A DNA stretch of 64,000 nucleotides, taken from the IMG/VR virus record IMGVR_UViG_3300029448_007456, positions 1-64,000 of that record; one strand, given 5' to 3'. The notes under the pieces were generated by a model. That model saw only the letters and a list, made by a program, of their open reading frames with translations, ran no database searches and was not told the origin of the DNA. Shown here one piece after another: positions 25,628-56,809 of this stretch; position 1 is the first letter of the stretch; every line of letters starts with the position of its first letter. The stretch is from a virus. The translations under genes were made by a program, and so were the position numbers.

Positions 25628-25909
25628 ATGTTCATCAAAGAAACCACAGAAATACACCTACATCAACGCGAATCTAAGTTGGGCAACGTTCATAATTTCA
25701 AACGCAGACGTAGTGTGTATCACTTCAAATGTGACTGCTGTGATAAGGAGTTCATGCGTGACAAATCCAAAGTAACACCCAGCAGAGCATCTAATAATTT
25801 TCATCATGTGTGTGCCAAATGTGATGTCCATAAATATGCTCAGCAAGTAGGCGTCAACATGCGTAAGATTTACAAATTAGATGCCAGTTCAATAGAGGTC
25901 AAAATATAG
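25628..25909 (+). CDS. Cys-rich hypothetical protein
   Basis: CDCC...HVCAKC; TAAATA at 25603-25608. Confidence 0.6.
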   Translation: MFIKETTEIHLHQRESKLGNVHNFKRRRSVYHFKCDCCDKEFMRDKSKVTPSRASNNFHHVCAKCDVHKYAQQVGVNMRKIYKLDASSIEVKI

Positions 25910-27768
25910 TGTCAAAACAAAACATTTATCTGTGCCAGTTTTCATCGTGTTATCCTGGTGCTAGAAAGATATTGTATTATCCTTACAGCGTTGGCATGAT
26001 TTGGAGTTATGCTAAAACGATACCGGAAATCGATCAATCATTCCATTGTAAGTTTTTTCTGGAGAAAAAAGAATTCACAGAGATCATAGACAGACTGGAA
26101 GATCCTGCATTGATCGGATTGTCTTCATATGTGTGGAACCACAACTACAATCTTAAACTTGCTGAAATGATTAAAGAAAAATATCCAGATTGTCTCACTG
26201 TGATTGGTGGCCCTAGTGTGCCTTTCAGAGACAAAAACTTCCTACAAGACCATTCCTACATTGATTTTGCAATATATCACGAAGGTGAACTTGCATTCAC
26301 AGACCTACTACTTCACATCAAAAAAAACAAACCAAAACATGATATTCGAGGCATAGGATTTATAGACAGCAACGGAGAAATTGTAGCCAACAAGGCCGAA
26401 AGGATTCCTGATCTTGATAACATCCCTTCACCTTATTCAACAGGACTTTTTGATGAACTCACAGAAGAATACAAAGACACAGACATAATATTAAATGTGG
26501 TAACAGAAACCAACAGAGGTTGTCCATATTCATGCACATTCTGTGACTGGGGAAATGGTACTCTTGGCAAAGTGCATCAAATGGACATATGTAGAACTTT
26601 ACAGGAACTTGATTGGTTCAGTGAAAACAAGATTGAGTATCTGCACATTGCTGATGCAAACTTTGGACTAAAACGTAAAAAAGACTTAGACATAATCGGA
26701 TATGCGGCAAAATTAAAACGCGAAACAGGATTTCCAAGAACTATCAATTATACCTTGAGTAAAAAATTTTTTCCAGAACATTTGGAAATTGCAAAAGTTT
26801 TATTAGACAATCAAATGATGAGACATTTCACACTAAGTCTTCAAGACAGACACGATGATGTTTTAGATGCTATCAAAAGAAAAAACATAGATCATGACTC
26901 ATACATGAACATCAAAGATATGTGCGATGAAAGAAATATTCCAATGTGCACCGAGTTGATGATTCCATTACCCAGACAAACATTTGACAGTTTTATGGAC
27001 CAAATAGAATTTTTGATAAAACACAACATATATCCACATTTTAGTCCCACCACTATTCTTCCTGGTGCTGAAATGGCCGACCCAGAATATCAAAAAAAGT
27101 ATGGAATGAAAACAGTATTAAGTGCCATGAAACACAGTGAATATGCAGAAGAATATGAAGAAGTTGTGATTGAAACAAATACAATGAAAAAAGAAGATAT
27201 GAACGAAGCACTGATCTTGGTTTGGTTGATTGATGTATTTCAATCATACGGATTTGCTGACATAGTTTGCGACTTTTATTGTAAAACAGAAAACAAAAGA
27301 TTAAGAGATTTTTATCGTTTGCTGTTTCAGTTTTTTGTTGATAAACCAGACAGCATGTTGTTTAAGTATTTTGATCCAGTTAAAGATCATGTCAATACCA
27401 AAGACACCTATAAATTATATCCAGGTAAAGATACAGAAGGAATAATACAAGAAATAGGATATGATTGCAGAGAACAATTTTTCAAAGAATTTGAAACATT
27501 CATGCACACTGTGATTCCAGAACAATACATCAAAGACTTATTGGCCATACAAAAAGTAAGGCAAACACATTCGTATGACAAAACAGAAGAAATAGTACTA
27601 TTAGATCAAGATGTTTATGGATATACCAAACACGAGTCCGAACTAGCGCCAGCCACATACAAAATAAAATACAAACCCATCGAAAAACATTTCGAATACT
27701 ACTGCAATTTTATGGTGCACGGGGTAATGTTCAAAAGATGGAAACCTTTAGAAATAAAGAAAATTTAA
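25909..27768 (+). CDS. B12-binding radical SAM protein (class B-like)
   Basis: IGLSSYVWN, VIGGP, EGE; ETNRGCPYSCTFCDW. Confidence 0.88.
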   Translation: MSKQNIYLCQFSSCYPGARKILYYPYSVGMIWSYAKTIPEIDQSFHCKFFLEKKEFTEIIDRLEDPALIGLSSYVWNHNYNLKLAEMIKEKYPDCLTVIGGPSVPFRDKNFLQDHSYIDFAIYHEGELAFTDLLLHIKKNKPKHDIRGIGFIDSNGEIVANKAERIPDLDNIPSPYSTGLFDELTEEYKDTDIILNVVTETNRGCPYSCTFCDWGNGTLGKVHQMDICRTLQELDWFSENKIEYLHIADANFGLKRKKDLDIIGYAAKLKRETGFPRTINYTLSKKFFPEHLEIAKVLLDNQMMRHFTLSLQDRHDDVLDAIKRKNIDHDSYMNIKDMCDERNIPMCTELMIPLPRQTFDSFMDQIEFLIKHNIYPHFSPTTILPGAEMADPEYQKKYGMKTVLSAMKHSEYAEEYEEVVIETNTMKKEDMNEALILVWLIDVFQSYGFADIVCDFYCKTENKRLRDFYRLLFQFFVDKPDSMLFKYFDPVKDHVNTKDTYKLYPGKDTEGIIQEIGYDCREQFFKEFETFMHTVIPEQYIKDLLAIQKVRQTHSYDKTEEIVLLDQDVYGYTKHESELAPATYKIKYKPIEKHFEYYCNFMVHGVMFKRWKPLEIKKI

Positions 27769-27773
27769 CTATT

Positions 27774-28094
27774 TTATTTTACTGAAAAACTAGTGCCGCA
27801 ACCACACGAAGAATGTGCATTGGGATTGTCATATGTAAAATAAGATCCAAAAATTTCCTGTTTGTAATCAATGCGTGTGCCTAATATAAACATTTCAGAA
27901 CGTTCATCCACCAGCACTTTGACATCGCCAAATGCTAGTTCTTGATCTCTATCCTTTTTTTCATCAGCAACATCAATCTTGTAGTTAAATCCCGCACAGC
28001 CACCACCTTTGACTCCAAATCTAATATAAGGCTTGCTTGCATCTTCACAGACTTCCTTCATTTTTGCAATTGCTGGCACAGTTATTTCTATCAT
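27774..28094 (-). CDS. iscA: A-type Fe-S carrier (IscA/ErpA)
   Basis: GGGCAG and NPNA..SCGCGTSF. Confidence 0.9.
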   Translation of the reverse strand: MIEITVPAIAKMKEVCEDASKPYIRFGVKGGGCAGFNYKIDVADEKKDRDQELAFGDVKVLVDERSEMFILGTRIDYKQEIFGSYFTYDNPNAHSSCGCGTSFSVK

Positions 28095-28102
28095 ACTTGT
28101 AT

Positions 28103-28420
28103 TTACATACCTAAATACAATCTACCATCGTCACTGACCATCTCAGGAGTCCATGGTGGATCAAATGTTAATTCTATTCTAACTTTGTCATGTCCTGCTT
28201 TTTCCACTGCTTCTTGGATCCACTGTGGTAACTCTCCTGCCACTGGACAATTAGGTGCTGTAAGGGTCATTGTGACATCTACTGAGTTGTCTTCCTGTAA
28301 AATAATGTCATATATCAAACCAAGTTCAAACACATCAATGGGAATCTCTGGATCATAAACTGATCTTAATTCATGAACTATGTTTGGAAAAGTGGTTTCA
28401 AAGTGTTTGCGGTCAATCAT
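28103..28420 (-). CDS. sufT: DUF59 Fe-S assembly protein (SufT-like)
   Basis: VYDPEIPIDVFELGLIY, MTLTAPNCP, FDPPW. Confidence 0.88.
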   Translation of the reverse strand: MIDRKHFETTFPNIVHELRSVYDPEIPIDVFELGLIYDIILQEDNSVDVTMTLTAPNCPVAGELPQWIQEAVEKAGHDKVRIELTFDPPWTPEMVSDDGRLYLGM

Positions 28421-28986
28421 TCAGTTGACCTGACGCCACGCACTTCTGGAATATAATGTTTCATCATATTTTCGATTCCAGACTTTAGTGTTGCTGTGGA
28501 ACTTGGACATCCTTGACAAGCGCCTTGCAGTTCTAACACAATCCATCCATCTTGGTATGATTCAAATATTATGTCCCCACCATCCAGGGCCACTGCAGGA
28601 CGTATTTTGACATCAAGTATTTCTTTAATTTTTTTTACTGTGTCGCTGTCACTGTCTTTAACTCCATGCTTGTTGTCGACATAATTTTTTTTGAATTGTG
28701 GTTCCCGTATTAATGGTTTATCCGTGGCAAATTGCGTAATGATAGCACCCATGATGGCTGGTTTCAACAATTTCCATTCAGCAAACTTATGCTTACTGAT
28801 TGTAATAAAGTCTGCACCATAAAACACACTTTCAACTCCTTTGATTTGAAAAAGTTGTTCGGCTAGGATTGAATTACCAGTGCTACTTTCATCTTGATAA
28901 AATTGTGTTCCATGACTCATAACTGTGACGCCAGGAATAAATTTTAGGGTTGCTGGATTTGGCGTTTGTTCTACTTGCACAAACAT
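28417..28986 (-). CDS. nfuA: Nfu/NifU family Fe-S protein with Nfu_N domain
   Basis: QTPNPATLKF; IRPAVALDGGD; GACQGCPSS. Confidence 0.9.
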   Translation of the reverse strand: MFVQVEQTPNPATLKFIPGVTVMSHGTQFYQDESSTGNSILAEQLFQIKGVESVFYGADFITISKHKFAEWKLLKPAIMGAIITQFATDKPLIREPQFKKNYVDNKHGVKDSDSDTVKKIKEILDVKIRPAVALDGGDIIFESYQDGWIVLELQGACQGCPSSTATLKSGIENMMKHYIPEVRGVRSTE

Positions 28987-28992
28987 GGAACA

Positions 28993-29625
28993 TTATGCCT
29001 CTAGCAATCTTGATTCTATAAATTTGTAATTGATCAGTTCGTTGATTACTCTTGTGAGATGTTCTTTTCGATCATTTTTGTAATCCAGATAGTATGAGTG
29101 TTCCCACACATCGAATGCGGCAAGTATATCAACATCTTCACCAACTGGATTATCTGCATTTGGATAAGTTTTAAATTTTAGATCTCCATTTTCTAAAACC
29201 AAATACACCCAACCAGATCCAAATCTTTTCATGCCTGCATCAACAAATGCTTCTTTGAACTGGTCCATTGTGTCAAATGAATCTTCAATATGATCTTGCA
29301 TTTCTTGTGATGGCTCTTCATAGTCTGGAGTCAATGATTGAAAGTATATAATATGATTAAAGTTTTGGCCTGCGTTGTTGAATATTGCTTGATCGTTATC
29401 TCTTGACTCAACAATAATTTGTTTGAGACTTTTGTCTTCATATTCTGTGCCTTTGATAAGGTCGTTTAATTTATCAACATATCCGGAATGGTGCTTTCCA
29501 TAGTGTAAGTCTATGGTTTCCCGACTTATTACTGGTTCAAGATCTTTTCTATCATAAGGCAAATCCATTATGGTGAACTTGCCACCGTTGACATTTACGT
29601 CATCTGCTACTTGATCTAGTTTCAT
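28993..29625 (-). CDS. sodB: Fe/Mn superoxide dismutase
   Basis: LHYGKHH, FNNAGQNFNH, FGSGW, DVWEHSYY. Confidence 0.9.
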   Translation of the reverse strand: MKLDQVADDVNVNGGKFTIMDLPYDRKDLEPVISRETIDLHYGKHHSGYVDKLNDLIKGTEYEDKSLKQIIVESRDNDQAIFNNAGQNFNHIIYFQSLTPDYEEPSQEMQDHIEDSFDTMDQFKEAFVDAGMKRFGSGWVYLVLENGDLKFKTYPNADNPVGEDVDILAAFDVWEHSYYLDYKNDRKEHLTRVINELINYKFIESRLLEA

Positions 29626-29857: not shown

Positions 29858-30889
29858 TCACAACACAGGTGATCCAATTGATATTAATTCATATTGTGCC
29901 GCCAACAAAGATGATGCAAGATTCTTGGCTTTGGATTCGCACTGTATATCAAACAATTTTCCAAATGGTTTTATCCAATTGTTTGTTGGTATATGCCAGT
30001 AATAATCAGAGTGTGCTCTAATGGTTGTTCTGTTTTCTCCCTGTTCAAATAATTTTTCTCTATCCAAAAGTTTTGCCTGGTCAACCTTGTTGTGCAATAT
30101 TTCTTTTGGCTGTGAATAATGCATCACTGGTCGCACACCACGCCACGAATCAATGATTCTTTTGATCCTGTCATCATCTACTGTGATCCATTCTCCACAG
30201 TTGACCCAATGATGATGTATATCAAACACCAGTGCCAAATGTTTTTCCAATTGTAAAACATCACCTAGTCCCCATTTCATTTCTTCATTTTCAATTGTGA
30301 TAGTATTCCTTGCTTCAGGCGACAGTCTTGGCAAAACATCAATGATGCCTTGTGGACCTCTTCGCCCAGATATATGCACGTTAATTTTAAAGTCCTGGAA
30401 TGTTTTACCATAACCCATCCAACGTGCCATGTTAACATGATATTCAAATTCTTCAATGCTACGGTCAATGATGTCATCCGACTCTGATGCCAACACAGTG
30501 AACTGTCCAGGATGAAAAGACAATCTCACACCCAATGATCTTGCTGTGTTGCCAACTTCAGCAAAATGTTTTTCACAGTATGCAATCACATCTGGTTTGG
30601 ACCAAAAGTATTTCCATGTGGCTTCTGTGGCCACAGGTAATATCGGTGAACTTAATCTACACATACGCAATGAGGGAGGCAGTGCACCAGTGTATTTGAC
30701 CAGTTCATGTATAGAAGATATATTATGGCGCATGAGATCCCACAGTCTTTCTTCTGCTTGATCTTTGTGTTCGTTGAGCCAACGCACAGTGGTTGCTCTA
30801 CAGTTGAGTGGCTGTTCAGTTTCCTTTAATAGTTTGGGTTTAAGTGTTCTATCATGATGTAGATACTTGCAACAATAGCCTATACGCAT
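29858..30889 (-). CDS. uvsE: UV damage endonuclease UvsE/UVDE
   Basis: RIGYCC, RLSFHPGQFTVL, IENEE, FDIHHHW, HYS, HSD, ESKAK. Confidence 0.92.
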   Translation of the reverse strand: MRIGYCCKYLHHDRTLKPKLLKETEQPLNCRATTVRWLNEHKDQAEERLWDLMRHNISSIHELVKYTGALPPSLRMCRLSSPILPVATEATWKYFWSKPDVIAYCEKHFAEVGNTARSLGVRLSFHPGQFTVLASESDDIIDRSIEEFEYHVNMARWMGYGKTFQDFKINVHISGRRGPQGIIDVLPRLSPEARNTITIENEEMKWGLGDVLQLEKHLALVFDIHHHWVNCGEWITVDDDRIKRIIDSWRGVRPVMHYSQPKEILHNKVDQAKLLDREKLFEQGENRTTIRAHSDYYWHIPTNNWIKPFGKLFDIQCESKAKNLASSLLAAQYELISIGSPVL

Positions 30890-36912: not shown

Positions 36913-37920
36913 CTAGTTTAGAGTTGCATTGACGGCATCAATGCCATCTTGGTCTAGCCATTTAATCCATACATCAGGATATGCTTTGAGGAACGATTCC
37001 ACAGATTCTTCAGCAGTTTCTTGCTGTTCATCCATTTTTACGATCAAACTGTTGAACAAGTTGATGTCAATGGATCTTGTGCCTAGATACTGCATGACAT
37101 CGCCATTTTGTGACATGTCACTTGATACCATTGTGTACAGAGTTGGCACACTGAAATCTGTAATTTTAGGTGAATCACAATCTTCCTTTTGGATACAATT
37201 GACCCAATGATCTGTTCCTGCAAATCCTTTGCCTGTTGGGATAGGTTGTAGATCGTACTTGCTAACCATGCCTGCTGGTTCCCAATAGAATCCAAACCAG
37301 TGATCGTCACTGTTGCCTGCCTTGCCAATACTACCGTCTAGGCCAACACCTGAACCTGGATCAACTATTTCCCAACCTTTTTCTTCTGCTCCATAGGCTT
37401 CTAAGATTTTTACTGTTGTGGTTGCACAACCCCACCCCACTGGACAGACATAAACTTTGCCGCCAAATATTTGAGGATTGTCTAACACATCTTCAACAGT
37501 TTTAAGTTCTGGATATGCTTCAAGTGTCTTAGGAAGCACATACCAATTTTCGCTAGCTCCACCTGAGATTGGCTCTTCGTTGGCAATAACTCCTGTGCCT
37601 CTTGCCAACGCATCGTCAACAATGCCTTGCACAGTTGATGCCCACAGTTCGCTGGCAACATCTGGTTCGCTTTTTTCTGCAAGGCTGGTGGCCAGTCCTA
37701 CAGTTCCGCCTTGAATCATTTGAATATTACAACCATACACTGTTTCTAGTATATACTTGTCCAAGTGGCCTAAGAATGCCGCAGATGACCATGTCATTTC
37801 TGCAACAGTGATATCGCCACAAGTTGTGTCAGCAATACTTGTCTTAGATTGCAACATTAATGCACCTGAGAACAATAATGCCACCAACATTGCTAATGTT
37901 ACTCCTGTTTTAGTCTTCAT
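36913..37920 (-). CDS. Glycine betaine/proline-type ABC substrate-binding protein
   Basis: Signal peptide, AEMTWSSA, CPVGWGC, FYWEP (OpuAC/ProX family). Confidence 0.8.
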   Translation of the reverse strand: MKTKTGVTLAMLVALLFSGALMLQSKTSIADTTCGDITVAEMTWSSAAFLGHLDKYILETVYGCNIQMIQGGTVGLATSLAEKSEPDVASELWASTVQGIVDDALARGTGVIANEEPISGGASENWYVLPKTLEAYPELKTVEDVLDNPQIFGGKVYVCPVGWGCATTTVKILEAYGAEEKGWEIVDPGSGVGLDGSIGKAGNSDDHWFGFYWEPAGMVSKYDLQPIPTGKGFAGTDHWVNCIQKEDCDSPKITDFSVPTLYTMVSSDMSQNGDVMQYLGTRSIDINLFNSLIVKMDEQQETAEESVESFLKAYPDVWIKWLDQDGIDAVNATLN

Positions 37921-38442: not shown

Positions 38443-38549
38443 ATGTCTAAGTTACCAACATAATGTACAATCAACACAGTGGCCACGCAAGCAATTGCAA
38501 GGCCAATCCATTCAAAAATGTTTCTGTGTTTCTTGAACCAATCAAGCAT
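38439..38549 (-). CDS. Small membrane protein (36 aa)
   Basis: Manual translation MLDWFKKHRNIFEWIGLAIACVATVLIVHYVGNLDI; overlaps both neighbours. Confidence 0.5.
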   Translation of the reverse strand: MLDWFKKHRNIFEWIGLAIACVATVLIVHYVGNLDI

Positions 38550-39345
38550 ATTTGGCTCCAGTAATGCTCATTGAAAGTTTGAGACTCATGCCAGCATTTG
38601 TACTGAGATGATACACTTCCATTGGTATCTCCCACACGTCACCTGATTTCCATTTTGGCCAAAATGTATTGGCCATCTGCAACATGTGTCCCCAATGCCA
38701 GTCAGTGATCATCACAAGATATCTTTTCATGTCACCTATGTCACATTTTCTTGTGTCTGGATTAGGATTGAGATGCTTGTTGATTCTACACCATCCACCC
38801 AAATAGTCAAAGTGCCACGGCAAGGTTTGACCTGGCATGTAAGCCAATAGTCTCATCAGTGCTGTGTCGTAATCGATCTTGATGCTTTCGAAATATTCTT
38901 TGCCTAACAATTCCTTTAGTTTGTCATTGGAATCGCCATAAAGTCCCCAGTTGTATTCACAGCAGTTGCCTTTGTTGTATCCAACTTTGGTAGGCAATTC
39001 CAACGTGAACTCATTTCTTCCTGTATGATAAGGTCTTGCTTCATAATATTTTTTTTGACAAGTGTCTTTGTTGTCTTTGATGAATTGTATGAATTTGTTT
39101 TGATCAATAGGCACATTACTAATATAGTGTGGTTCTGGGTCACACTCGTCTGTTAGGTTTGCTCCTGTTTCTTCTGCAAATGCAATCCATTCTTTGTCAG
39201 GTCTGTGTTCTAAAAAAGTCCAAAGGTCAAGTTCTTGGCCTGGTCCTGGCATTTTAGAATTTTTAACATAATATTCAGGATCTGTTGGCACCCAGCCATC
39301 AGCCGCAACTATGTCTTTCATCTTGTAGTCTTTATTCTTTTCCAT
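38542..39345 (-). CDS. Cupin/Fe-2OG dioxygenase-like paralogue
   Basis: PGQTLPWHFD...DWHWGH...WKSGD...YHLSTNAG. Confidence 0.65.
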   Translation of the reverse strand: MEKNKDYKMKDIVAADGWVPTDPEYYVKNSKMPGPGQELDLWTFLEHRPDKEWIAFAEETGANLTDECDPEPHYISNVPIDQNKFIQFIKDNKDTCQKKYYEARPYHTGRNEFTLELPTKVGYNKGNCCEYNWGLYGDSNDKLKELLGKEYFESIKIDYDTALMRLLAYMPGQTLPWHFDYLGGWCRINKHLNPNPDTRKCDIGDMKRYLVMITDWHWGHMLQMANTFWPKWKSGDVWEIPMEVYHLSTNAGMSLKLSMSITGAKYA

Positions 39346-39967
39346 TGATTTCTCCTGTGATGGTAAGTGTTAGTTTTGGTTTGAATCCAGCATTGCCACT
39401 CAAATGCCATAGATCATTTGGAATGAACCAGGTGTCTCCAGGATTCCAACCGTATATCATTTTGTCGTGTACCTGTAGGAAATGACCCCAGTCCCATTCG
39501 CTGACAGCGACAAAAAATCTGTCTGGTGTGCGAGATGTTGCAAACATATTTTTGAAACCTTCTTTGCCATCAACATGCAGTGGCAAAATATGTCCTGGAT
39601 TGTATTCCAACAATCGTATCAAGGTTTTGTTGGGGTCCAGTTGCAACTGTTCTAAATTTTTACTGCCAACAATATCAACCAGCATGCGATTGTGCTTGGG
39701 ATCCAACCCCCAATTGGATTCTATTGTGTTGTGTTTGTTGTATCCCACCCAATTGGCACACGTGGCAATATGGTTAGAGTAATGATCTAGAAAAGGTCTA
39801 GGACGGAAGGACTTGACTGTGGCTTCTGATCTATATTTTTCTGTAAAAGATTCGAATGCCTTTGGATCAATATCCAGAGTTGTGTTTTTTTCGATTTGGA
39901 TTGGTTGTTTTAGATCAACTCCAGCATCGTCAAGCAGTGTTTGATAGTAGTGGCCTTCTATTGCCAT
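39332..39967 (-). CDS. Cupin/Fe-2OG dioxygenase-like paralogue
   Basis: PGHILPLHVD...EWDWGH...WNPGD...WHLSGNAG. Confidence 0.65.
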   Translation of the reverse strand: MAIEGHYYQTLLDDAGVDLKQPIQIEKNTTLDIDPKAFESFTEKYRSEATVKSFRPRPFLDHYSNHIATCANWVGYNKHNTIESNWGLDPKHNRMLVDIVGSKNLEQLQLDPNKTLIRLLEYNPGHILPLHVDGKEGFKNMFATSRTPDRFFVAVSEWDWGHFLQVHDKMIYGWNPGDTWFIPNDLWHLSGNAGFKPKLTLTITGEINGKE

Positions 39968-40719
39968 TTATCCCAACCTTCCCAATCGTCTACAAGTTCT
40001 CCACTCCAGTGAATAGTAATTTTAGGAGTAGGTCCTGAGTTGGCTGATCCATGATACACACCTGGTGTTAGATCCCACAGATCTCCTGCCTTCCATTGAT
40101 TCATACAATGATTGCCATAATGGAAAAAATGTCCAAAGTCCCAATCTCTAGGAAATATCATGAAACGTCTTAGTCTTGTATAGTTTGCCTTGGTATCGCC
40201 TGTGCGTCTTATGAATGACGAATATGTGTCAACATGACTCCAATGCATACTGCCTGGGATCTGTACAAACAAACTTATACCTAGTTTATCTTGTTTGAGC
40301 ATAGGAAACATATCTCTCAAAGGTTGTTCCCAATGTTCAAAATCTTGATTTGCAATTTTAAAATACTGTGTGTTGCCTGTTGTGAATGTGTTGTTTTTGA
40401 ACATCAACAATGCCTGTTCACGTATTGGAGTATGGGTTGCGTCATCTCCACCATGTGAAATAAAACCTGTTTCGTAATTGTAGTCCCACCATTTGTTAGG
40501 TAGTCTCATTTTGTTTACTTTTTCAATACACCATTTGGACAAACCTTCCCAATCCAATTTGTTTGACCAATTGCCTATTAATCCTTTGCCGTCATCATGA
40601 TCTTGTTTCATAGGATCCCAATGCCAAGGATACTGTTCCCTGATTTCGGGTAAAACTGTTTCTTTGGGATCATGGCGACCTGTGGTTAGATCAAAACTAA
40701 GGGGCTCTACTTTAGACAT
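39958..40719 (-). CDS. Cupin/Fe-2OG dioxygenase-like paralogue
   Basis: PGSMHWSHVD...DWDFGH...WKAGD...YHGSANSG; SD AAGGAG before 40719. Confidence 0.65.
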   Translation of the reverse strand: MSKVEPLSFDLTTGRHDPKETVLPEIREQYPWHWDPMKQDHDDGKGLIGNWSNKLDWEGLSKWCIEKVNKMRLPNKWWDYNYETGFISHGGDDATHTPIREQALLMFKNNTFTTGNTQYFKIANQDFEHWEQPLRDMFPMLKQDKLGISLFVQIPGSMHWSHVDTYSSFIRRTGDTKANYTRLRRFMIFPRDWDFGHFFHYGNHCMNQWKAGDLWDLTPGVYHGSANSGPTPKITIHWSGELVDDWEGWDKWQ

Positions 40720-40786
40720 TATATCTCCTTTTTTTAATTGTAACACTTTAATTACAATTATGTCAATTAAAAGGTTAGATATACAT

Positions 40787-45391: not shown

Positions 45392-46408
45392 TTATTTAGA
45401 AGCCTTGGCTTTTAAATCCATTGTGGTTAAGTTTTCTACAATTGCTTTGACTTCTGCCGCCTTGTCTTCTGCAAGTGGCACCAGTCCGAGTGAACCAAGA
45501 AAACCATCAATAGATGTGGCTTCATCTGATATGAACAATTTAGCATATTCCTCAATGCCAGGAACGATGCCAACATGATCTTTTTTGATGTAGTAAAACA
45601 GAGGTCTTGCTATTGGATATTCATATGATTGAATTGTTTCCAATGAAGGCTTGACTCCGTTCACTGTAGATCCTTTGATGGCATCTTTATTTTCCAACAG
45701 ATATGAATAACCAAAGAATCCAAATCTATCAGGACTGTCTTTAAGTTTGTTCACAATGAGTGTGTCGTTCTCACCCATCTCTGTGGTTGCACCATCTTCT
45801 CTGAAGTGTTTGCACCCGTTTTTTTCTGTTTGTAGGTCTTTGGCTCCAGCTTCTTTACAGCCTTTTTTCATCACTAATGATTCCCAAGCATCTCTGGTGC
45901 CCGATGATGGTGGTGCCACCAATATATCGATTTTCATGTTTGGCAGTGATGCATCAATTTCTGACCACTTTGTGTATGGATTAGGCACTAGTTTGCCGTC
46001 CACAGGCACTTCTTTGGCCATTGCTAACCACAACTGTTTAGTGGTCACTTTCATGTCAGGACCTTCCAGTGAGTTGGCAAACACAATGCCGTCGTTGCCT
46101 ACAATAACTTCAACAACACTGTCAACGCCATTGTCTAAACACAATTTGGCTTCTTTGGACTTCATAGCCCTTGAAGCATTTGTGATGTCTGGATGTTCTA
46201 GGCCTACACCGGCACAGAACATTTTCATACCACCGCCTGATCCAGTGGATGCCACAGTGGGTGCTTTTGAACCAGCTTCGCTCAGTCTTTCTGCCACAAC
46301 AGTAGAGTATGGATACACTGTAGATGAACCTACAATGTTAATGATATCTCTTGCCTGTAGTGTGGAAGAAAGGAGAACTGAAGCTAGTAGGATTACTAAC
46401 TTGTTCAT
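45392..46408 (-). CDS. pstS: Phosphate ABC transporter substrate-binding protein
   Basis: IVGSSTVYP, STGSGGG, NASR, SSGTRD, YPIARPLFYY; SD before MNKLV. Confidence 0.92.
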   Translation of the reverse strand: MNKLVILLASVLLSSTLQARDIINIVGSSTVYPYSTVVAERLSEAGSKAPTVASTGSGGGMKMFCAGVGLEHPDITNASRAMKSKEAKLCLDNGVDSVVEVIVGNDGIVFANSLEGPDMKVTTKQLWLAMAKEVPVDGKLVPNPYTKWSEIDASLPNMKIDILVAPPSSGTRDAWESLVMKKGCKEAGAKDLQTEKNGCKHFREDGATTEMGENDTLIVNKLKDSPDRFGFFGYSYLLENKDAIKGSTVNGVKPSLETIQSYEYPIARPLFYYIKKDHVGIVPGIEEYAKLFISDEATSIDGFLGSLGLVPLAEDKAAEVKAIVENLTTMDLKAKASK

Positions 46409-46471
46409 GATAAATTTCCTTTCATTGTATGGAGTATCCATAGATATATATTAAAATTATATGCTTATATA

Positions 46472-46787: not shown

Positions 46788-47397
46788 GCAAATATTTATT
46801 GAAATTTTGCGTGGTATCCCTTGAAAAATTTGCATGTCTATGCCACTGTTTTGGACATTGATATTCTGCAGGTGCTATCCAAACAAAATTGACATGTGGA
46901 TAACTTTCAAACAGTTTGTCCAATTGATGATGCCAATACTTAGGATCGACTGCTTTGTTATCATATCCATTTGTATTGGCATACACATTAGTGTAGTTGT
47001 TTTGTTGTGTCATATCGAAACCGATCAGATAGCAAAGATTGGTTGTCTGCATGTTCCATTCATAGTTTTTAAATGCACAAGCAATGTTGATTGCATGTGG
47101 ACCTGAATTCCAATGCCAAGGGTTGTCTTCTCTTTCAGTTCCATTGTATGGCAGTTCTGGATAAGCACTTACCATGAACTTAGTATTCCAGTTTGGTCTA
47201 GTGTATAACTGTCCTGGGTAGTCAGATGATAATACCTCAGCAACCATTCGCTGATCAGCGGCTGACACTATGTCTGGATGAAAGTCTCTTACGATTGCGT
47301 TACAGCCGACAGTGACTCCTTGCTTTTTACAAGAGTCAAGATCTATCGGCTGTCTGCTCTCACCATTGCCTATTACAAAGGTGATGCGTTTTTTCAT
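46777..47397 (-). CDS. Hypothetical protein, GT29/DUF115-like Rossmann fold
   Basis: VIGNGESR, GCNA, NSGP, LIGFD. Confidence 0.5.
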   Translation of the reverse strand: MKKRITFVIGNGESRQPIDLDSCKKQGVTVGCNAIVRDFHPDIVSAADQRMVAEVLSSDYPGQLYTRPNWNTKFMVSAYPELPYNGTEREDNPWHWNSGPHAINIACAFKNYEWNMQTTNLCYLIGFDMTQQNNYTNVYANTNGYDNKAVDPKYWHHQLDKLFESYPHVNFVWIAPAEYQCPKQWHRHANFSRDTTQNFNKYLHDT

Positions 47398-49175
47398 TAA
47401 AATAGATATTTTAAACTGACAGCAAATTCTCTGCCAGGCTGTGTATATCCCATTGGTCTTTCATATGCCAAATCAGTCACGTTGTTGATTGTGGCAGTTA
47501 CTTCAGTGGCGTCACTCACTTTATACAAAAGTCCGATGTCTGTGTAGTGTTGTTCACTATTGGTCACAGTTGACCAATTGGTTGGGTGAATATCTTTGTG
47601 TTCACCATAGTAGTTCCAATCATACCAAACTTTCAACTTGTCTGTGACATCATGACCTAAACCAACCACAGCAGAATACTGCGGGCGTCTAGTTAATTGC
47701 ACATCATCTGAATCCTGTGCATGCACGGACGTTACACTAAAGTTGATTGTTGTGTCATCATACTGTTGTTTGTTCTGCAACTCCCAACCTTCCATAGAAC
47801 TGGTTCCAGTTGTGTTGTTATAAGTTGAGTTTGAATAAGATATCATGTTGTCAATTTTTGTGGAAAACACAACAAACTTGCTGTCCATACTGACATATTC
47901 GTTTTTGACTTTTGACACCAATCCAATTTCGTTGTTCACTGAACGTTCTTCTTCAAGACTAGCATTGCCTGAATATCCGAAGTTGTCAGCACCATACATT
48001 TCATACAGTGTAGGCGCACGGAATCCTGTGTTGTGTCCTGCAATGGCTGTCATGTGGTCATTTAATTTGTAACCAACACCAAGTCGATACGTGTTAACAT
48101 CATCATGTAAACTGTTAGTATCATGTCTAACTCCTGTGTTCAACAACACATTACCTAGTTTGTAATCTGCATTTAGAAAATATGCATTTGCTTGTGCTGA
48201 TTTGTCCACAGATGAATTGTAAGATCCTTTGTTGTCAAATTTTGCTGTGTAGGCTGATCCTTCTGTTCCAACGGTGTATTCTACTGGCCCAAATGTATTG
48301 GTATGGGATAGTTTGATATGATTAGTTGAACTGTCGTAAGTGTCTATCTCTGTGCCATTCACATATTCACGGTCATGCACGTTTCTATCAATGACAAAAT
48401 TTACAACATCTGATTCGTATCTTGCTTGTAAAAAGTAAAAATCTGAATCTGATGTGTAGTCAGTGTCGTCAGTGCCACCTGCATCAAGGTCAGCACTTGC
48501 ATCTCTATACACCACTGTGGTGCCAATTTTTGCATTTTCAGTGTAGTGCGTTGAATCAAAGTTCAATGTCTGATACTGATATCCGTCATTGTCTCCGCCT
48601 TCTACAATAGAATATCCATCGGATGATTCTTGATACATTTTAATAGAGTATATTCCTGATGGTTGTGCAGTAAAATAGTTTACTCCAAGGCCTGCGGTGT
48701 TGTTAGATCCAGTCTTAAGTTCTACACTGTCTTCTAATGTGCCTCCAGTGTTGATGTTAATAGCACCACCAATTGCACCAGGTCCCCAAAGTGTGCTCTG
48801 CGATCCTTTGTATAAATCAATTGAACCTGCATAAGTCACTGAATCTACACCTGCATCAAACAATCCGTTAGTTGTAGAATGGTCAGTTACTGGTGATCCG
48901 TTGATCATAAACAGTGTGTGGTTGGAATTAGTTCCTCTTGTAAACACAGAGGTTTGTTGTCCACGTGGTCCAGATCTTATTGCTTGAAATGAAGTATTGC
49001 TGTCCAGCACTTCACCTATGGTCACAGTGTTCTTATAGGACTGTGTTTTGACTGTGTCCACATTTGTTGTTAATAAACTTTTGTCACTTGGCACAATATA
49101 CAGTGTGACATCAAGAGCACTGGCAGTTGCTATTGATCCAAAAACAAAAGTCAAGATTATCGTTAGTATTTTCAT
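47397..49175 (-). CDS. btuB: TonB-dependent cobalamin receptor
   Basis: Plug motif SVFTRGTNSNHTLFMING, GFRAPTLYE, NNVTD..Y..PGR..YLF; preceded by Cbl riboswitch; start MKILT after SD. Confidence 0.88.
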   Translation of the reverse strand: MKILTIILTFVFGSIATASALDVTLYIVPSDKSLLTTNVDTVKTQSYKNTVTIGEVLDSNTSFQAIRSGPRGQQTSVFTRGTNSNHTLFMINGSPVTDHSTTNGLFDAGVDSVTYAGSIDLYKGSQSTLWGPGAIGGAININTGGTLEDSVELKTGSNNTAGLGVNYFTAQPSGIYSIKMYQESSDGYSIVEGGDNDGYQYQTLNFDSTHYTENAKIGTTVVYRDASADLDAGGTDDTDYTSDSDFYFLQARYESDVVNFVIDRNVHDREYVNGTEIDTYDSSTNHIKLSHTNTFGPVEYTVGTEGSAYTAKFDNKGSYNSSVDKSAQANAYFLNADYKLGNVLLNTGVRHDTNSLHDDVNTYRLGVGYKLNDHMTAIAGHNTGFRAPTLYEMYGADNFGYSGNASLEEERSVNNEIGLVSKVKNEYVSMDSKFVVFSTKIDNMISYSNSTYNNTTGTSSMEGWELQNKQQYDDTTINFSVTSVHAQDSDDVQLTRRPQYSAVVGLGHDVTDKLKVWYDWNYYGEHKDIHPTNWSTVTNSEQHYTDIGLLYKVSDATEVTATINNVTDLAYERPMGYTQPGREFAVSLKYLF

Positions 49176-49178
49176 AAA

Positions 49179-49278
49179 GTCTCCTTGCTTTGTTCTACCC
49201 CTAGGTGGCATTCGGACTATAACCGTATCAAGTAATGTGAACGAATTTCACGTCGCTTTCCCACTATGCTTTTAGGAA
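49179..49278 (-). ncRNA. Cobalamin riboswitch, class IIa (AdoCbl-variant)
   Basis: CCUAAAAGCAUAGUGGGAAAGCGACGUGAAAUUCGUUCACAUUACUUGAUACGGUUAUAGUCCGAAUGCCACCUAGG...GCAAGGAG; near-identical in layout to the env8 HyCbl riboswitch. Confidence 0.93.
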
Positions 49279-49284: not shown

Positions 49285-49314
49285 TATTTTATATGTTTTA
49301 GATGTGTTTGTCAA
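49285..49314 (-). promoter_or_regulatory. Sigma70-type promoter for riboswitch-btuB
   Basis: TTGACA-17-TAAAAT directly upstream of aptamer. Confidence 0.7.
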
Positions 49315-49328: not shown

Positions 49329-49775
49329 TTATGCAAATCTAAATTTTGGTATTTCAAAAGTGTGCTTCTGCAGATATTCGAACATTTGTGCAAAGATCAA
49401 TGTGCTGATCAACATGTTCACATAGAACGGAATGGCCATCATATAACAAGTGATCAAACCTTCCAGAGTATAACCATACCATCCACCGGTCCACACAGCA
49501 AAATTAGTCACAACAAAAAACAGTGTTGCACTAAAAATTGCACCACGTTGAAAATATGCAATTGCAAATAGACTGGCGTATACCCACAGCATGTAAGAAT
49601 GAAACCCAATTATTGCATCTGAAATAATGTATGCAATTAAACATGGCAGTACACTGACAAGACCAGTCATCATAAACACAGCAATCACTGGTGTAAAGTT
49701 TGGTGGATGCGGAAGCAGTCTAGACGCCACTATGCAAAAAAGCATAAAAATTGTGGTATAAGTATTTTTTGACAT
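49329..49775 (-). CDS. DUF6580 family membrane protein (putative B12 uptake component)
   Basis: SRLLPHPPNFTP, FFVVTNFAVW, CYMMAIPF. Confidence 0.75.
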   Translation of the reverse strand: MSKNTYTTIFMLFCIVASRLLPHPPNFTPVIAVFMMTGLVSVLPCLIAYIISDAIIGFHSYMLWVYASLFAIAYFQRGAIFSATLFFVVTNFAVWTGGWYGYTLEGLITCYMMAIPFYVNMLISTLIFAQMFEYLQKHTFEIPKFRFA

Positions 49776-49823
49776 GGTTACGTTACTATATATTTATTTT
49801 ACTGTTTTGTCAAACAAATCGTA

Positions 49824-51350
49824 ATGATTGATTTCCTATTAATCACTGGCCCTGTGAGAGACTTAACTTTTGCACCAATGGCACTAGCACAGTTAAAAAG
49901 TATCAGCGAAGCGGCTGGATTCACATGTAAAACCATAGATTACAATCAAAAATACTTTCATCACCAATGCAACAAAGACAAAAACAAGTTTTATGAACAA
50001 ACCAAAATGTTTAGAAACACTTTGCCACTGACCTATGATGAAATTGCCAACAGTCATTGTGGTACTTGGTTGGCACATAAAGTAATACAAGATGTCAAAA
50101 AATACAATCCTAAGACAGTTGGGGTGAGCAGTTTTAGTAGATACAACAACATATCTTGCGTGTTGATCTGTAAAATTATCAAACAGCATTTTGCACACAT
50201 CAAAATTATTATTGGTGGATATGGTCTACACAATCCCCTAAATTATCTAGATGCCTTTGATGCAACTCTACAATCACAACCCGAAGTTGGCGAGTTACTC
50301 AAAGTCAACAACTTATGTGACACCTATATTATCGGTGATGCAGAACACAAATTGATAGAATGGTTGAAAGATCACACAGTGGATTATTCTGGATTGAACA
50401 AAAGGATTATTGATGCCAATTGGACTGATACTCCTTATGCTGACTTCGAGGATCTCGACATAGAAAATTACGACTATCACAAAGGATTAATACTACCAAT
50501 GACTGGCAGTAAAGGATGTGTAAGAAAATGCACTTTCTGTGACATCCCACATAACTTTGGTAAATTTTCGTTCAAGTCAGGAAAATCAATAGCAGATGAA
50601 GTGATGCATCTTTATGAACACTATGGAGCCAAAACAATTTATTTTACAGATTCGCTGGTGAATGGCAGCCTCAGTGCATTCATTGATTATGTAGAAACTT
50701 TAGCAGAACTAAAAGCAAAGAAAGGGTATGACGATCTAAGATGGACTGGACAATACATTGTGAGACCAGCACATCAAATTCCTGATCCGGAAAATTATTA
50801 TGCTCTGTTGAATGAAAGTGGAGCAGAAGGACTTACTATAGGTATTGAGTCTGGCAGTAACAAAGTTTTGGCTGAAATGAAAAAACACTGCACTGTGGAT
50901 GATATTCTCACTGAAATCAATTATTTTTCCTCACATGATGTGTCTTGTGGTATATTATTGTTTCCTGCATTTCCATCTGAGACTAGACAAGATTTTTTAG
51001 CCACAGTGAAAATGTTGAAAAAATTACAACCATATTGGTGCAACGGTACAATAAATCTTGTAAACTTCAACACATTTTATGGCAATGAAAATTACAGTGA
51101 ATGGGGTAAAAAGACAGAACAAGACGGCATGTATTCACATCCCAATGATCATAGTTTATGGTGGTATAAAAATAATCCAAAACTAGATTACAAAGAGATT
51201 GTGTTTAGGAGACTGGTATTGAATAAGTTGGTTGAAACTCTCAATATTCCAACCAATCACGAATATGACTACATGACCCAAATTCATAATTATTTTACAA
51301 CAAACATAGGAAAGGTAAAAAAGTTTCATGCTGACATTAAAAAACATTGA
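49824..51350 (+). CDS. B12-binding radical SAM protein
   Basis: APMALA, VGVSSFS, IIGG, GDAE; SKGCVRKCTFCD; IGIESGS. Confidence 0.85.
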   Translation: MIDFLLITGPVRDLTFAPMALAQLKSISEAAGFTCKTIDYNQKYFHHQCNKDKNKFYEQTKMFRNTLPLTYDEIANSHCGTWLAHKVIQDVKKYNPKTVGVSSFSRYNNISCVLICKIIKQHFAHIKIIIGGYGLHNPLNYLDAFDATLQSQPEVGELLKVNNLCDTYIIGDAEHKLIEWLKDHTVDYSGLNKRIIDANWTDTPYADFEDLDIENYDYHKGLILPMTGSKGCVRKCTFCDIPHNFGKFSFKSGKSIADEVMHLYEHYGAKTIYFTDSLVNGSLSAFIDYVETLAELKAKKGYDDLRWTGQYIVRPAHQIPDPENYYALLNESGAEGLTIGIESGSNKVLAEMKKHCTVDDILTEINYFSSHDVSCGILLFPAFPSETRQDFLATVKMLKKLQPYWCNGTINLVNFNTFYGNENYSEWGKKTEQDGMYSHPNDHSLWWYKNNPKLDYKEIVFRRLVLNKLVETLNIPTNHEYDYMTQIHNYFTTNIGKVKKFHADIKKH

Positions 51351-51897
51351 ATCAGAGATTGATAAATGTGTTGCTCTAGCAGATGAGTATTCCTATAGAT
51401 TTGAAATTGAACTGCAAGGTGTATTGTGCAACGGAGATCCTAACACATTTATAAAAATTAATCAAACCACATACTATGAAGAAAAGTTTAATGGTGACAA
51501 AAGTTTTGTGATCGATTGTGTGTTGCCAAAAGATAGTGTGTGCAACATTGTGATTGGATTACAGCACAAACAAACTTCCAACACAATACTACAGAACAAT
51601 AAAATCATACAAGATCAATTTGTCAAAATACGAGACATAAGAATCAATCAAATCAGTTTAGTAAAAAATAATTTATACTTTTGGGACCATTCCAAGTTTG
51701 TGATGCAAAACAATGGTGAAGTCCTGCACAACAGAGATGGAGCATATTTTAATGGTGAATTCATATTGTCGTTGCAGACACCTATATTTCCTTATCTCAG
51801 TAAATTGTTTCAGGACAATATAAAAAATTACAATGTTGAAAACAAATTTTTGTCATCTGAACACAGACAGGAATTGATTCAAGCAGTGTATGATTAG
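51328..51897 (+). CDS. Hypothetical radical-SAM-associated protein
   Basis: Coupled to rSAM gene; similar to 5890..6294. Confidence 0.55.
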
Positions 51898-52886: not shown

Positions 52887-52912
52887 TATCTAACCAAACT
52901 GTATATTTTCAT

Positions 52913-54532: not shown

Positions 54533-54569
54533 AATTTGAGTATATAAGGAAAAAAAGATACTGTCAACA

Positions 54570-54786
54570 CTGCTTGGAGGGCCTTGCTATGAACTCACCC
54601 CCAACGTCCGGCTAGCAGATCACATCATCTCTATGAAGTTTAAATGTGAGCCTACTTCCAACCATCCCCTTGCAAACTTAGCCATTGGGCCATCTAAAAC
54701 AAGGTCATGTGCGTTATCCCCCTGCCGAAGGATTATTCCGCCACAAGCTCTAAAAAGTTGCAACTAATTAGAATGCGTTGTTCAGT
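54570..54786 (-). ncRNA. Putative ~200-nt structured non-coding RNA
   Basis: GC-rich ORF-free block with own TTGACG-16-TATTAT promoter; multiple helices (AUCCUUC/GGGGGAU, UCACAU/AUGUGA, UUGGGGG/CCUCCAA). Confidence 0.6.
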
Positions 54787-54892
54787 AATAGTATAATAGC
54801 ACTTTTATTAAATGCGTCAACCATATAAAAAATCATTGTTTTTTGCAGTTTTTTTGCCTGGAAAATCTTAATCCATAAATATTTGACTTATC

Positions 54893-56809
54893 ATGCTTAA
54901 TTTAGTGTTAGCACAACCTGGTTTCAGTTGGGGACCATCTCATCTGAATGCTCATTATCTTCCTTATTCAGTTGGTTGTTTGTGGGCGAAATGTCTAGAC
55001 AATCAAACAATTGTTGAAAATGTTGAACTTTTAGACATGATTGCTGTGCGTGAAGATATTCAACACTTTGTTGACAAATATGATAAAATTGATGTTATTG
55101 GTTTTTCTTGCTATGTTTGGAATTACAATTATGTCAATGCTTTAGCCAAAGCAATCAAACGCAAGTTTCCTGAGTGTGTTGTGGTTTTCGGAGGCCCAGA
55201 ACCAGAACACAGTGATCAAGACATATTTGTCAATAAACCTTGGCTTGACTGTGTGGTGGTGCAGGAAGGCGAAGTTAGTTTTGAAAGAATTCTTGAATGC
55301 TTGATTACTAAAAAAAGTTTGGAAACAATTCCTGGATTGGTAATCAACAAACGGGGTCAAAGACTGGTTACACCCATATCACAAAGAATAACTGATCTTG
55401 AGTCCTTGCCTTCACCCTACATCAAGGGCGTGTTTGATCATTTGTTTCACAAACACCCTGATATCACTTGGACAGCCATAATGGAAACCAACAGAGGTTG
55501 TCCTTACAAATGCACATACTGTGATTGGGGTAGCCTCACATTAAGCAAGATCAAAAAGTTTTTGCTGGACAAAGTGGAACAAGAAATCAAATGGATGAGT
55601 GATAAAAAAATAGACTTTGTTAACATAGCAGATGCCAACTATGGCATTTTCAAAGAAAGAGATTTAGCCATCACACGACTATTTGGCAAATATAGATCAA
55701 TCACTGGATGGCCAAAAGCAGTCACAACCAATTGGACAAAAAATGCCAAGAAGCATGTGTTGGACATTGCTCAAGAATTCAAGGATCAAGGCATTGCAAA
55801 CAGTGTGACAGTCAGTTTACAGAGTCTACACGATGATGTGTTGGATGCTGTTGAAAGGAAAAATTTTGAACTCAACAATATCGAAGAAATGTCCATGGCT
55901 TGTTTTGAAAAACAATTACCAGTGGCTGTTGATTTAATTTTGGGATTGCCTATGGAAACAAAAAAATCTTGGAGGCAGACATACTACAAGTTATTTGATC
56001 TAGACATTCATCAAGATTTTTACACACATCAAGCCATGCTGTTGGAAAATGCACACATGAATCAAAATCAATTGCATCAGTATGGTATGGAAAAATTTAC
56101 AAGGCCCATCAAGTTTACTGAAGACAATATGCAACACACTGAATACGCAACCTTTGTCAAAAGCACAAACACAATGACGTATGATGATATGATTGACTGT
56201 GCAATGCACACCAATTGGATTTATGCTCTGCATCACACTGGCCTAAGTTCTGAGCAGAGCAAATTTTTGCACAAACACAGCGGGATACCTTATGCAACTT
56301 TTTACAATGGTCTGATTGAATTTTTGTTGCAACATGATTTTATGCACAATTGTTATCAGCAAAGCGTTGAGCAAATCAAGATGTCCTACAGTGATATAAA
56401 CCAACCCACTTTGGAACAAATTGACCTTAGCCTAAGTGGTGAGTTTAATATACTTGAATGGAATATTATTAATAAAAAGATTGAAACTGATATACAAAAT
56501 TGCATCAAAGAGTTCATTGACACACGATTTACAATTGACAAGGATCTAGTTGATCAGTTGGACGTATATGCACAACTCAGTTACTTGACATTTGAAAATC
56601 ATACGAAGTTTGATCAACTGTCACATGAATTTGATTATAATTTTTATGAGGTCAACAATTTAAATGCTGACATGGCAAAAGGCAAACATACATATGTTTT
56701 TAAGAAAAAGTTATCACAGACTTTTGAAAACACTGTGGACTATGCAAATTACATGATTGTGCGAAAACGTAACATTCCTTCAAAGAACATCATCACACAA
56801 CAAGATTAG
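54893..56809 (+). CDS. B12-binding radical SAM protein (paralogue of 25909..27768)
   Basis: LPYSVG, IGFSCYVWN, FGGP, EGE; ETNRGCPYKCTYCDW; TAAATA at 54876-54881. Confidence 0.88.
   Translation: MLNLVLAQPGFSWGPSHLNAHYLPYSVGCLWAKCLDNQTIVENVELLDMIAVREDIQHFVDKYDKIDVIGFSCYVWNYNYVNALAKAIKRKFPECVVVFGGPEPEHSDQDIFVNKPWLDCVVVQEGEVSFERILECLITKKSLETIPGLVINKRGQRLVTPISQRITDLESLPSPYIKGVFDHLFHKHPDITWTAIMETNRGCPYKCTYCDWGSLTLSKIKKFLLDKVEQEIKWMSDKKIDFVNIADANYGIFKERDLAITRLFGKYRSITGWPKAVTTNWTKNAKKHVLDIAQEFKDQGIANSVTVSLQSLHDDVLDAVERKNFELNNIEEMSMACFEKQLPVAVDLILGLPMETKKSWRQTYYKLFDLDIHQDFYTHQAMLLENAHMNQNQLHQYGMEKFTRPIKFTEDNMQHTEYATFVKSTNTMTYDDMIDCAMHTNWIYALHHTGLSSEQSKFLHKHSGIPYATFYNGLIEFLLQHDFMHNCYQQSVEQIKMSYSDINQPTLEQIDLSLSGEFNILEWNIINKKIETDIQNCIKEFIDTRFTIDKDLVDQLDVYAQLSYLTFENHTKFDQLSHEFDYNFYEVNNLNADMAKGKHTYVFKKKLSQTFENTVDYANYMIVRKRNIPSKNIITQQD

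Follow-up and report, generated by a model that had tools for sequence, protein, structure and literature searches.

Genes for a TonB-dependent vitamin B12 receptor, for IscA, IscU and SufE, for radical S-adenosylmethionine (SAM) and SPASM proteins, and for curli were listed as separate items in the 2020 survey of pelagimyophages by Zaragoza-Solas et al. (PMC7029224). IscA and IscU were present in about half of these phages, along with several radical SAM families; no riboswitches were found, B12-dependent radical SAM genes were not separated from the others, and the parts were not linked functionally (PMC7029224). The Melnitz paper describes phage riboswitches as rare, with glutamine riboswitches alone reported, and our literature search found no paper linking phage btuB, a riboswitch and B12-dependent radical SAM genes. 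Here we describe a stretch of 64,000 nucleotides (the window), the first 64 kb of the linear, 114,778-bp IMG/VR record IMGVR_UViG_3300029448_007456, which between positions 25,628 and 56,809 carries three radical SAM genes of the B12-binding kind, a B12 (cobalamin) uptake module under a riboswitch, and an operon for iron-sulfur (Fe-S) carriers and superoxide dismutase (SOD). The separate parts are already known for pelagimyophages; what is new is the presence of several B12-dependent radical SAM genes, the Fe-S/SOD operon and the riboswitch in one phage.

Class B radical SAM enzymes require both cobalamin and a [4Fe-4S] cluster. The closest known relatives of those encoded here, TokK and ThnK (carbapenem) and CysS (cystobactamid), are cobalamin-dependent sequential C-methylases; the nearest with solved structures methylate small molecules and not proteins. 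On the uptake side, the closest counterparts are E. coli btuB, whose TonB-dependent receptor also consists of plug and barrel domains and is controlled by a cobalamin-sensing leader, and BtuM of Thiobacillus denitrificans (PDB 8OVV), a six-helix S-component paired with btuB and lacking an energy-coupling factor (ECF) module.

We think it probable that the phage possesses a conserved cofactor-supply backbone, made up of regulated B12 import and Fe-S carriers, and that its clients are radical SAM enzymes, a changeable set with TokK-type cobalamin-dependent C-methylases among them. The parts are intact and recognizable, and their linkage recurs in other phages and in SAR11 bacteria; from this we infer a flow of cobalamin and Fe-S clusters to the radical SAM enzymes. 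The first-pass annotation of this DNA had gone further, proposing that the phage imports B12, delivers clusters and protects them with SOD so as to run its own late modification chemistry. That interpretation is partly supported: the arrangement is real, and its coupling is probable. If the link holds, the phage brings in a vitamin under the control of a metabolite sensor that it encodes itself, and provides metal clusters as well, in order to run radical enzymes of its own; its auxiliary genes would then do more than boost host metabolism, the role usually ascribed to such genes.

Radical SAM genes

The genes rSAM1 (25909-27768), rSAM2 (49824-51350) and rSAM3 (54893-56809) are all on the plus strand, against a background in which nearly every gene is on the minus strand. 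The strand bias is real, and three plus-strand B12-binding radical SAM genes are present as first described. The radical SAM domain (PF04055) scores above its cut-off in each (43.4, 54.8 and 49.5 bits, respectively), and the CX3CX2C motif is seen in all three. The B12-binding domain (PF02310) is above cut-off in rSAM1 (39.7 bits) and rSAM3 (50.8 bits) and below it in rSAM2 (20.5 bits). For the latter, hhalign against a TokK-like profile gives 96% probability over residues 70-355, a span covering the Rossmann domain and the core, and the PhpK family matches at 95 bits; rSAM2 is probably a PhpK-like class B enzyme with a divergent cobalamin domain.

rSAM1 and rSAM3 appear to be cobalamin-dependent methylases of the TokK/CysS type. 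Their scores against the KedN5 subfamily (208 and 231 bits) do not reach the curated NCBIfam cut-off of 700, and they are best regarded as relatives of that subfamily, not members by the curated rule. The AlphaFold model of rSAM3 (predicted local distance difference test, pLDDT, 86) superposes over its full length on TokK (template modeling score, TM, 0.88) and CysS (TM 0.77), reproducing the three-domain fold and, in the case of TokK, including the N-terminal cobalamin domain. A family profile of the rSAM3 type finds TokK with an E value of 4e-129, although the phage enzymes are only 24% identical to these relatives. In TokK, Trp76 is positioned beneath the cobalt and Trp215 next to both cobalamin and substrate, residues conserved only in TokK, ThnK and CysS (10.1101/2021.07.10.451909). 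Their counterparts, W76 and W212, show no variation in the alignment of which rSAM1 and rSAM3 are part, and rSAM1 also shows the YVWN and CDWG signatures. The N-terminal domains of these two proteins are thus homologous to the TokK cobalamin domain, with Trp76 conserved, and the concern that they do not bind cobalamin finds no support. rSAM2 has Arg in place of Trp76 and Ile at the second position. This Arg (residues about 96-102) recalls Arg69 of TsrM, a non-radical cobalamin methylase; the rSAM2 relatives at two other loci (L125 and L126) differ there.

Over the whole 115-kb record there are seven genes with a radical SAM domain, among them a paralogue of rSAM2 at record position 98724-100196, and the B12-dependent radical SAM genes of the phage would be counted as three or four. 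The clients of the supply backbone would be these changeable cassettes: here the two TokK/CysS-type C-methylases, rSAM1 and rSAM3, and one or two PhpK-like class B enzymes. The rSAM3 family comprises more than 1,339 homologues and extends to at least 595 viral contigs, which flags a very large viral family of TokK-like methylases. PHROGs contained no family for any of the three radical SAM proteins or for DUF6580, the membrane protein discussed below; among GenBank phages no BtuB relative was found and the radical SAM proteins had two weak matches. Scans of viral contigs with single proteins gave no matches, and alignment queries were needed.

Two small genes accompany the cassettes. orf93 (25628-25909, plus strand), the stop of which overlaps the start of rSAM1, encodes a small, basic, Cys-rich protein (CxCC ... 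CxxC) that had no match in family searches. It is conserved with rSAM1 in a relative of this phage, G024, at 62% identity, the gap to the radical SAM gene being about 1.6 kb there. Its CxCC and CxxC motifs could form a zinc or iron site. orf189 (51328-51897, plus strand) overlaps the end of rSAM2; it matched no family and no homologue was present among the fetched loci. Flanking repeats that would mark the cassettes as mobile units were not found.

Cobalamin uptake module

The placement of rSAM2 divergent from a DUF6580 gene, a riboswitch and btuB was correctly described, as coordinates and strands confirm. The btuB-like gene (47397-49175, minus strand) encodes a TonB-dependent receptor with plug (PF07715) and barrel (PF00593) domains above their cut-offs. 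Its open reading frame (ORF) is open to 49211. The ATG at 49211 falls within the riboswitch aptamer; the ATG at 49175 stands behind AAGGAG, yields a clean signal peptide and is the likely start. The C-terminal residue is Phe, as is typical of outer-membrane proteins. The best NCBIfam receptor family is TonB-B12 (TIGR01779), the score of 166.6 bits lying below the equivalog cut-off of 599.7; B12 specificity is attributed to the receptor from the riboswitch and the gene context.

The btuB leader contains an AdoCbl-II (class II) cobalamin riboswitch aptamer (49198-49278, minus strand) that matches RF01689 over model positions 1-81 of 81, scoring 78.4 bits (gathering score, 36.5). Unlike the RF00174 leader of E. 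coli btuB, this is the small class II aptamer. The Shine-Dalgarno sequence AAGGAG is 10-15 nucleotides downstream of it. A CUUG loop could pair with CAAG; plain RNA folding of the leader showed no stable expression platform (z = +1.9). Promoters of sigma-70 type precede both transcripts, TTGACA-17-TAAAAT for riboswitch and btuB (49286-49314, minus strand) and TTGACA-17-TATAGT for DUF6580 (49785-49813, minus strand), each with 11 of 12 consensus matches. We propose that these host-type promoters drive DUF6580 and btuB, and that the riboswitch gates translation of btuB such that the receptor would be made when cellular cobalamin is low.

The DUF6580 gene (49329-49775, minus strand; PF20221, 92 bits) encodes a membrane protein resembling ECF S-components. 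In a structural search with its model (pLDDT 85), the top 15 wide matches were all ECF S-components, BioY giving a Z score of 11.6 and BtuM with hydroxycobalamin one of 10.6 over 136 residues; Foldseek E-values were weak, and a search by sequence against PDB chains found no match. It shares with BtuM the six-helix fold and the pairing with btuB without an ECF module, but unlike BtuM the family has no invariant cysteine, His59 being among its invariant residues. The cobalt ligation of BtuM is for this reason probably not shared. On the strength of the model, DUF6580 is a candidate BtuM-like cobalamin carrier of the inner membrane, and the family thereby gains a function that can be tested. At 41 of the 50 viral loci a DUF6580 gene is next to btuB, and among cellular loci the figure is 27 of 54; the riboswitch occurs in 13 of 36 btuB-bearing viral records versus none of 21 that lack btuB.

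Searches of the record for TonB_C (PF03544), flavodoxin, CobT and CobS found none, and no BtuF or BtuCD was seen among the scanned ORFs, although these were not searched for directly. With no phage TonB, CobS/T or flavodoxin on the record, the module has to draw on the host for TonB and for reductants. The receptor, located in the outer membrane, would then be powered by host TonB, and DUF6580, as a solitary S-component like BtuM, would carry cobalamin over the inner membrane. Aptamer, receptor and S-component-like carrier together form what is, judged from sequence, a real and regulated module of B12 uptake.

Some phages and colicins use BtuB as their receptor. A BtuB-like protein made by a phage could for that reason have nothing to do with nutrition and act as a block to superinfection, a decoy or a docking site, and the score below the curated cut-off for B12 receptors is compatible with such a role. 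We regard this as extremely unlikely, given that a cobalamin-sensing aptamer precedes the receptor gene and would gate it, that the S-component-like partner stands beside it in most viral loci, and that the same operon layout is found on host chromosomes (see below).

Iron-sulfur and superoxide dismutase operon

Facing rSAM1 is a tight minus-strand operon in the order sod-nfuA-sufT-iscA. The first recognized gene, sod (28993-29625; PF00081 and PF02777), encodes an Fe/Mn superoxide dismutase. It is followed by nfuA (28417-28986), for an Fe-S carrier with Nfu_N (PF08712, 96 bits) and NifU (PF01106, 87 bits) domains and a CQGC motif at residues 157-160, by a gene for a SufT/DUF59-like Fe-S assembly protein (28103-28420; PF01883, 55 bits), and by iscA (27774-28094), for an A-type carrier (PF01521, 68 bits) with Cys33 and Cys97-Gly-Cys99. 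The stop codons of rSAM1 and iscA are 5 nucleotides apart, and the convergence of rSAM1 on these four genes is as first described. We propose that the products of this operon supply [4Fe-4S] clusters and that its SOD would keep superoxide damage in check.

The idea that this operon is a partner of the radical SAM genes was only loosely borne out. In G024, one of three viral records with NfuA, the same convergent layout of rSAM1 and iscA-sufT-nfuA-sod is found, with sod 94% and iscA 88% identical. In the jumbo phage G029, another NfuA record, sufT again adjoins nfuA, and nfuA-sufT stands directly upstream of a 12-gene radical SAM array, 23 radical SAM genes being present in all. At 6 of 80 loci an IscA-like gene and a TokK-like radical SAM gene are no more than 10 kb apart. 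Against this, NfuA is rare: the search of 57 viral records turned it up in just 3, and the 4 complete genomes all lack it. A role in Fe-S supply for a phage rich in radical SAM genes is a reasonable proposal, loosely supported. The jumbo marine phages G029, G030 and G005 (240-330 kb) carry 18-23 radical SAM genes each.

Other cobalamin-dependent enzymes

The uptake module might serve another type of enzyme altogether. In many bacteria btuB riboswitches are coupled to a class II ribonucleotide reductase or to methionine synthase, and CheckV places the completeness of the record at about 34%, so that the full genome should measure roughly 340 kb; an enzyme of this sort might be encoded in the remaining two thirds or so. 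The check for a class II reductase, which the first-pass annotation had named as the observation that could explain uptake in full, was run: the reductase of the record is class Ia, with a complete pair of NrdA (1084 bits, cut-off 813) and NrdB (452 bits, cut-off 346), and therefore needs no B12. PF02310 matches only the three radical SAM genes over the whole record. In addition, this phage and G024 have four B12-domain genes between them, of which three are no more than 6 kb from btuB in strand-corrected coordinates, and in the SAR11 genomes searched, as those of likely hosts, no such enzyme was found above cut-off. We therefore consider service to a distant cobalamin enzyme very unlikely. 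The class B radical SAM enzymes would be the only B12 clients visible on the record, a statement that is not final, two thirds of the genome lying outside it.

Co-occurrence in viral genomes and cassette turnover

The co-occurrence of btuB and B12-dependent radical SAM genes in related phages was checked and differs with the side from which it is approached. Starting from btuB, one or two class B radical SAM genes are found within 10 kb, in the fetched flanks, at 18 of 50 viral loci. Their density is 0.68 per 20 kb, versus 0.14 for extra copies at loci anchored on radical SAM genes, or about five times a conservative baseline. One lineage of phages of about 140 kb has two B12-dependent radical SAM genes, DUF6580 and btuB in a single, tightly packed, same-strand cluster; in another, which includes a complete genome of 328 kb, a TokK-like gene with both signature tryptophans is about 4 kb from btuB. 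The radical SAM genes adjacent to btuB fall into at least four deep clades of the tree, and the linkage has thus arisen, or been kept, many times.

Starting from the radical SAM side, none of 21 long phage records with TokK-like genes contains a TonB-dependent receptor or the AdoCbl-II riboswitch, three of these records being at least 93% complete (330-343 kb), and neither btuB nor DUF6580 was present in the flanks of 80 viral loci anchored on radical SAM genes. It follows that B12-dependent radical SAM enzymes of phages normally rely on host supply. Of the claim that the phage imports B12 for its own radical SAM enzymes, what stands is a regulated module with class B enzymes as its sole visible clients; what does not carry over is any general dependence of such enzymes on phage-borne uptake.

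Comparison with close relatives separates two classes of genes. G024 is syntenic with the window from 13.6 to 60 kb, and its backbone genes are 55-95% identical. It has an orthologue of rSAM1 (40% identity, grouping with rSAM1 at 100/100 support), but the rSAM2-orf189 cassette is missing, DUF6580 abutting clpP instead, and the rSAM3 slot holds a SPASM-type radical SAM gene; a different radical SAM gene with a weak B12 domain is found elsewhere in G024. At locus L100 the rSAM2 and rSAM3 cassettes are both missing from the same sites. From these comparisons the lineage has a conserved backbone, to which the Fe-S/SOD operon, the riboswitch, btuB and DUF6580 belong, and a fast-changing repertoire of radical SAM genes. 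Differences in radical SAM cassettes between close relatives have already been noted for pelagimyophages (PMC7029224).

Several of these observations count against a dedicated supply line: the absence of uptake genes from all 21 radical SAM-bearing records, the rarity of NfuA, the loss or exchange of cassettes in G024 and L100, and several phage fragments, up to 68 kb, that have riboswitch, btuB and DUF6580 without any B12 domain. The KedN5 and TonB-B12 scores are far under their curated cut-offs, only about a third of the genome is in the record, and the window also contains OpuAC and PstS uptake genes, so that btuB could be another general nutrient gene. The same points can be read as independence, the B12, Fe-S, SOD and radical SAM parts each serving host upkeep or separate ends and being brought together through a hypervariable island. 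This account would be in keeping with the swapping of cassettes while the backbone stays, with the company of OpuAC, PstS, UvdE and ClpP in the same stretch, and with the separate listing of B12 receptor, IscA/IscU and radical SAM genes in 2020 (PMC7029224). It does not readily accommodate the fivefold enrichment of class B genes at btuB loci in several deep clades, the same-strand cluster of radical SAM genes, DUF6580 and btuB in one lineage, or the SAR11 genomes searched, in which no B12-domain protein above cut-off was found other than a class B radical SAM protein, usually beside the uptake operon. We hold independence to be somewhat unlikely and continue to favour a supply backbone that serves the radical SAM enzymes.

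SAR11 chromosomes

The nearest cellular relatives of the receptor recovered were from Pelagibacteraceae, at 28-32% identity, in a scan that was limited by its search pattern. In SAR11 an AdoCbl-II aptamer directly precedes the receptor gene in 11 of 12 loci, DUF6580 follows, and the locus is beside the rRNA operon or 23S rRNA gene. A gene for a 657-residue B12-dependent radical SAM protein with the TokK signatures is divergent from the riboswitch. Its neighbours include genes for aldo/keto reductases, an epimerase/dehydratase, transketolase-like and glycosyltransferase-like proteins and another radical SAM protein. The SAR11 and phage modules thus share the three uptake parts (riboswitch, receptor and DUF6580) and a divergent B12-dependent radical SAM neighbour. 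They differ in sequence (28-32% identity for the receptor, about 40% for DUF6580), in order (DUF6580 comes after btuB in SAR11; in the phage it is placed ahead of the riboswitch, with a separate promoter), and in that the phage carries several radical SAM genes.

In all five SAR11 genomes searched, the sole B12-domain ORF above the curated cut-off is a radical SAM protein of this type, and in four of the five it is within about 10 kb of btuB. One of the five has a second B12-domain match, a 360-residue ORF scoring 19.8 bits, which is below the cut-off. No class II ribonucleotide reductase above cut-off was found in the SAR11 genomes searched. A general B12 need of the host is therefore left without another visible client, and the class B radical SAM protein, as the only B12-domain protein above cut-off, offers a reason for B12 uptake in SAR11. 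This chromosomal linkage is the strongest independent support for an uptake module that feeds class B radical SAM enzymes. Whether SAR11 btuB is regulated by B12 was stated to be open in a 2022 paper (PMC9296465), and the aptamer in 11 of 12 loci bears on that point.

Possible substrates

In about 50 of 80 viral loci, a gene of the rSAM3 type is located inside a conserved block that also encodes an epimerase/dehydratase, GTP cyclohydrolase I, a HIT protein, a QueD-like PTPS, a QueE-like radical SAM protein, a cytidylyltransferase, DUF6071 and a 5'-3' exonuclease. The loci with the block fall within L012-L091 (e.g. L044, L021, L063 and L070). The block hints at a cobalamin-dependent step on a compound of deazapurine or pterin type. 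In the window, a QueD-like gene and a DegT aminotransferase gene are 3-6 kb from rSAM1. Modification of DNA with 7-deazaguanine was considered for this phage and set aside, as neither FolE nor TGT/DpdA is on the record. No GT2 glycosyltransferase was found on the record.

Methylation of virion proteins, one of the targets first suggested, has no support: the solved relatives act on small molecules, and the gene contexts are those of sugar or deazapurine-type genes. The block context in viruses and the sugar-gene context in SAR11 favour instead a small molecule, a nucleotide sugar or a glycan. By analogy, the radical SAM enzymes of the phage more likely act on such a compound than on a virion protein, and would most likely methylate its unactivated carbons. 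Their phage setting differs from that of TokK and CysS, in that no natural-product cluster is visible and neither are a carrier protein or genes for handling pantetheine.

A bolder proposal is that in SAR11 and its large phages the cobalamin economy mainly feeds TokK-like iterative C-methylases, which would tailor a surface glycan or a deazapurine- or pterin-derived metabolite, the phage bringing its own supply line and a rapidly swapped set of these enzymes to remodel that molecule during infection. We think this fairly unlikely in its full form. If true, it would explain B12 uptake by SAR11 without classical B12 enzymes and would establish DUF6580 as a new cobalamin-importer family.

Promoter motifs

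Two of the radical SAM genes were said to be behind TAAATA late motifs, which is correct as to the motif: on the plus strand TAAATA is found at 25603-25608, 25 nucleotides before orf93 in the orf93-rSAM1 pair, and at 54876-54881, 17 nucleotides before rSAM3. rSAM2 has no TAAATA before it on its own strand. The motif also precedes DUF6580 and a baseplate gene. Of 56 copies in the record, 29 are within 60 nucleotides upstream of an ORF start, and TAAATA and ATAAATA are strongly enriched upstream of ORFs; TAAATA is evidently promoter-like. What did not hold is use of the T4 late box proper: TATAAATA has just two copies in the window, not above chance, and was rejected as a promoter here. The phage likely uses an element related to that box. 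The motif is a weak hint that the radical SAM genes are expressed late. In the ORF-free 360 nucleotides before rSAM3 (54533-54892) there are two strong sigma-70-like promoters on the minus strand, at 54820-54793 and 54567-54539.

Phage identity, host and neighbouring genes

The window belongs to a large, T4-like marine phage with an estimated genome of about 340 kb. Virion-type genes on the record encode a T4 gp9/10-like baseplate protein and tail-fibre-like and virion proteins, a DNA ligase and a Clp-type ATPase are also encoded, and the nearest homologues of the proteins come from marine metagenomes, Tara among them. With about 340 kb and 38% G+C, the phage seems larger than the pelagimyophages. 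A SAR11 bacterium, or one similarly streamlined, is the probable host; the assignment to SAR11 is tentative, since the scan for cellular relatives of the receptor was pattern-limited.

Host-like auxiliary genes on the minus strand of the window encode an OpuAC glycine-betaine-type binding protein (36913-37920), a PstS-like phosphate-binding protein (45392-46441) and a UvdE UV endonuclease (29858-30889), and a ClpP gene is present in the same stretch. Three tandem paralogues of 211-267 residues (38542-40746, minus strand) have no family match. They were considered as possible B12-binding partners and rejected, their Atlas matches being only viral hypothetical proteins with a few that are cupin- or hydroxylase-like. 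In another phage lineage, nine loci have homologues of these paralogues immediately upstream of the DUF6580-btuB pair. Lastly, this otherwise marine phage has a "freshwater-2" RNA motif (RF02980; 68.3 bits, gathering score 49.9) at 24145-24227 on the minus strand, directly upstream of a 197-residue ORF (23554-24147).

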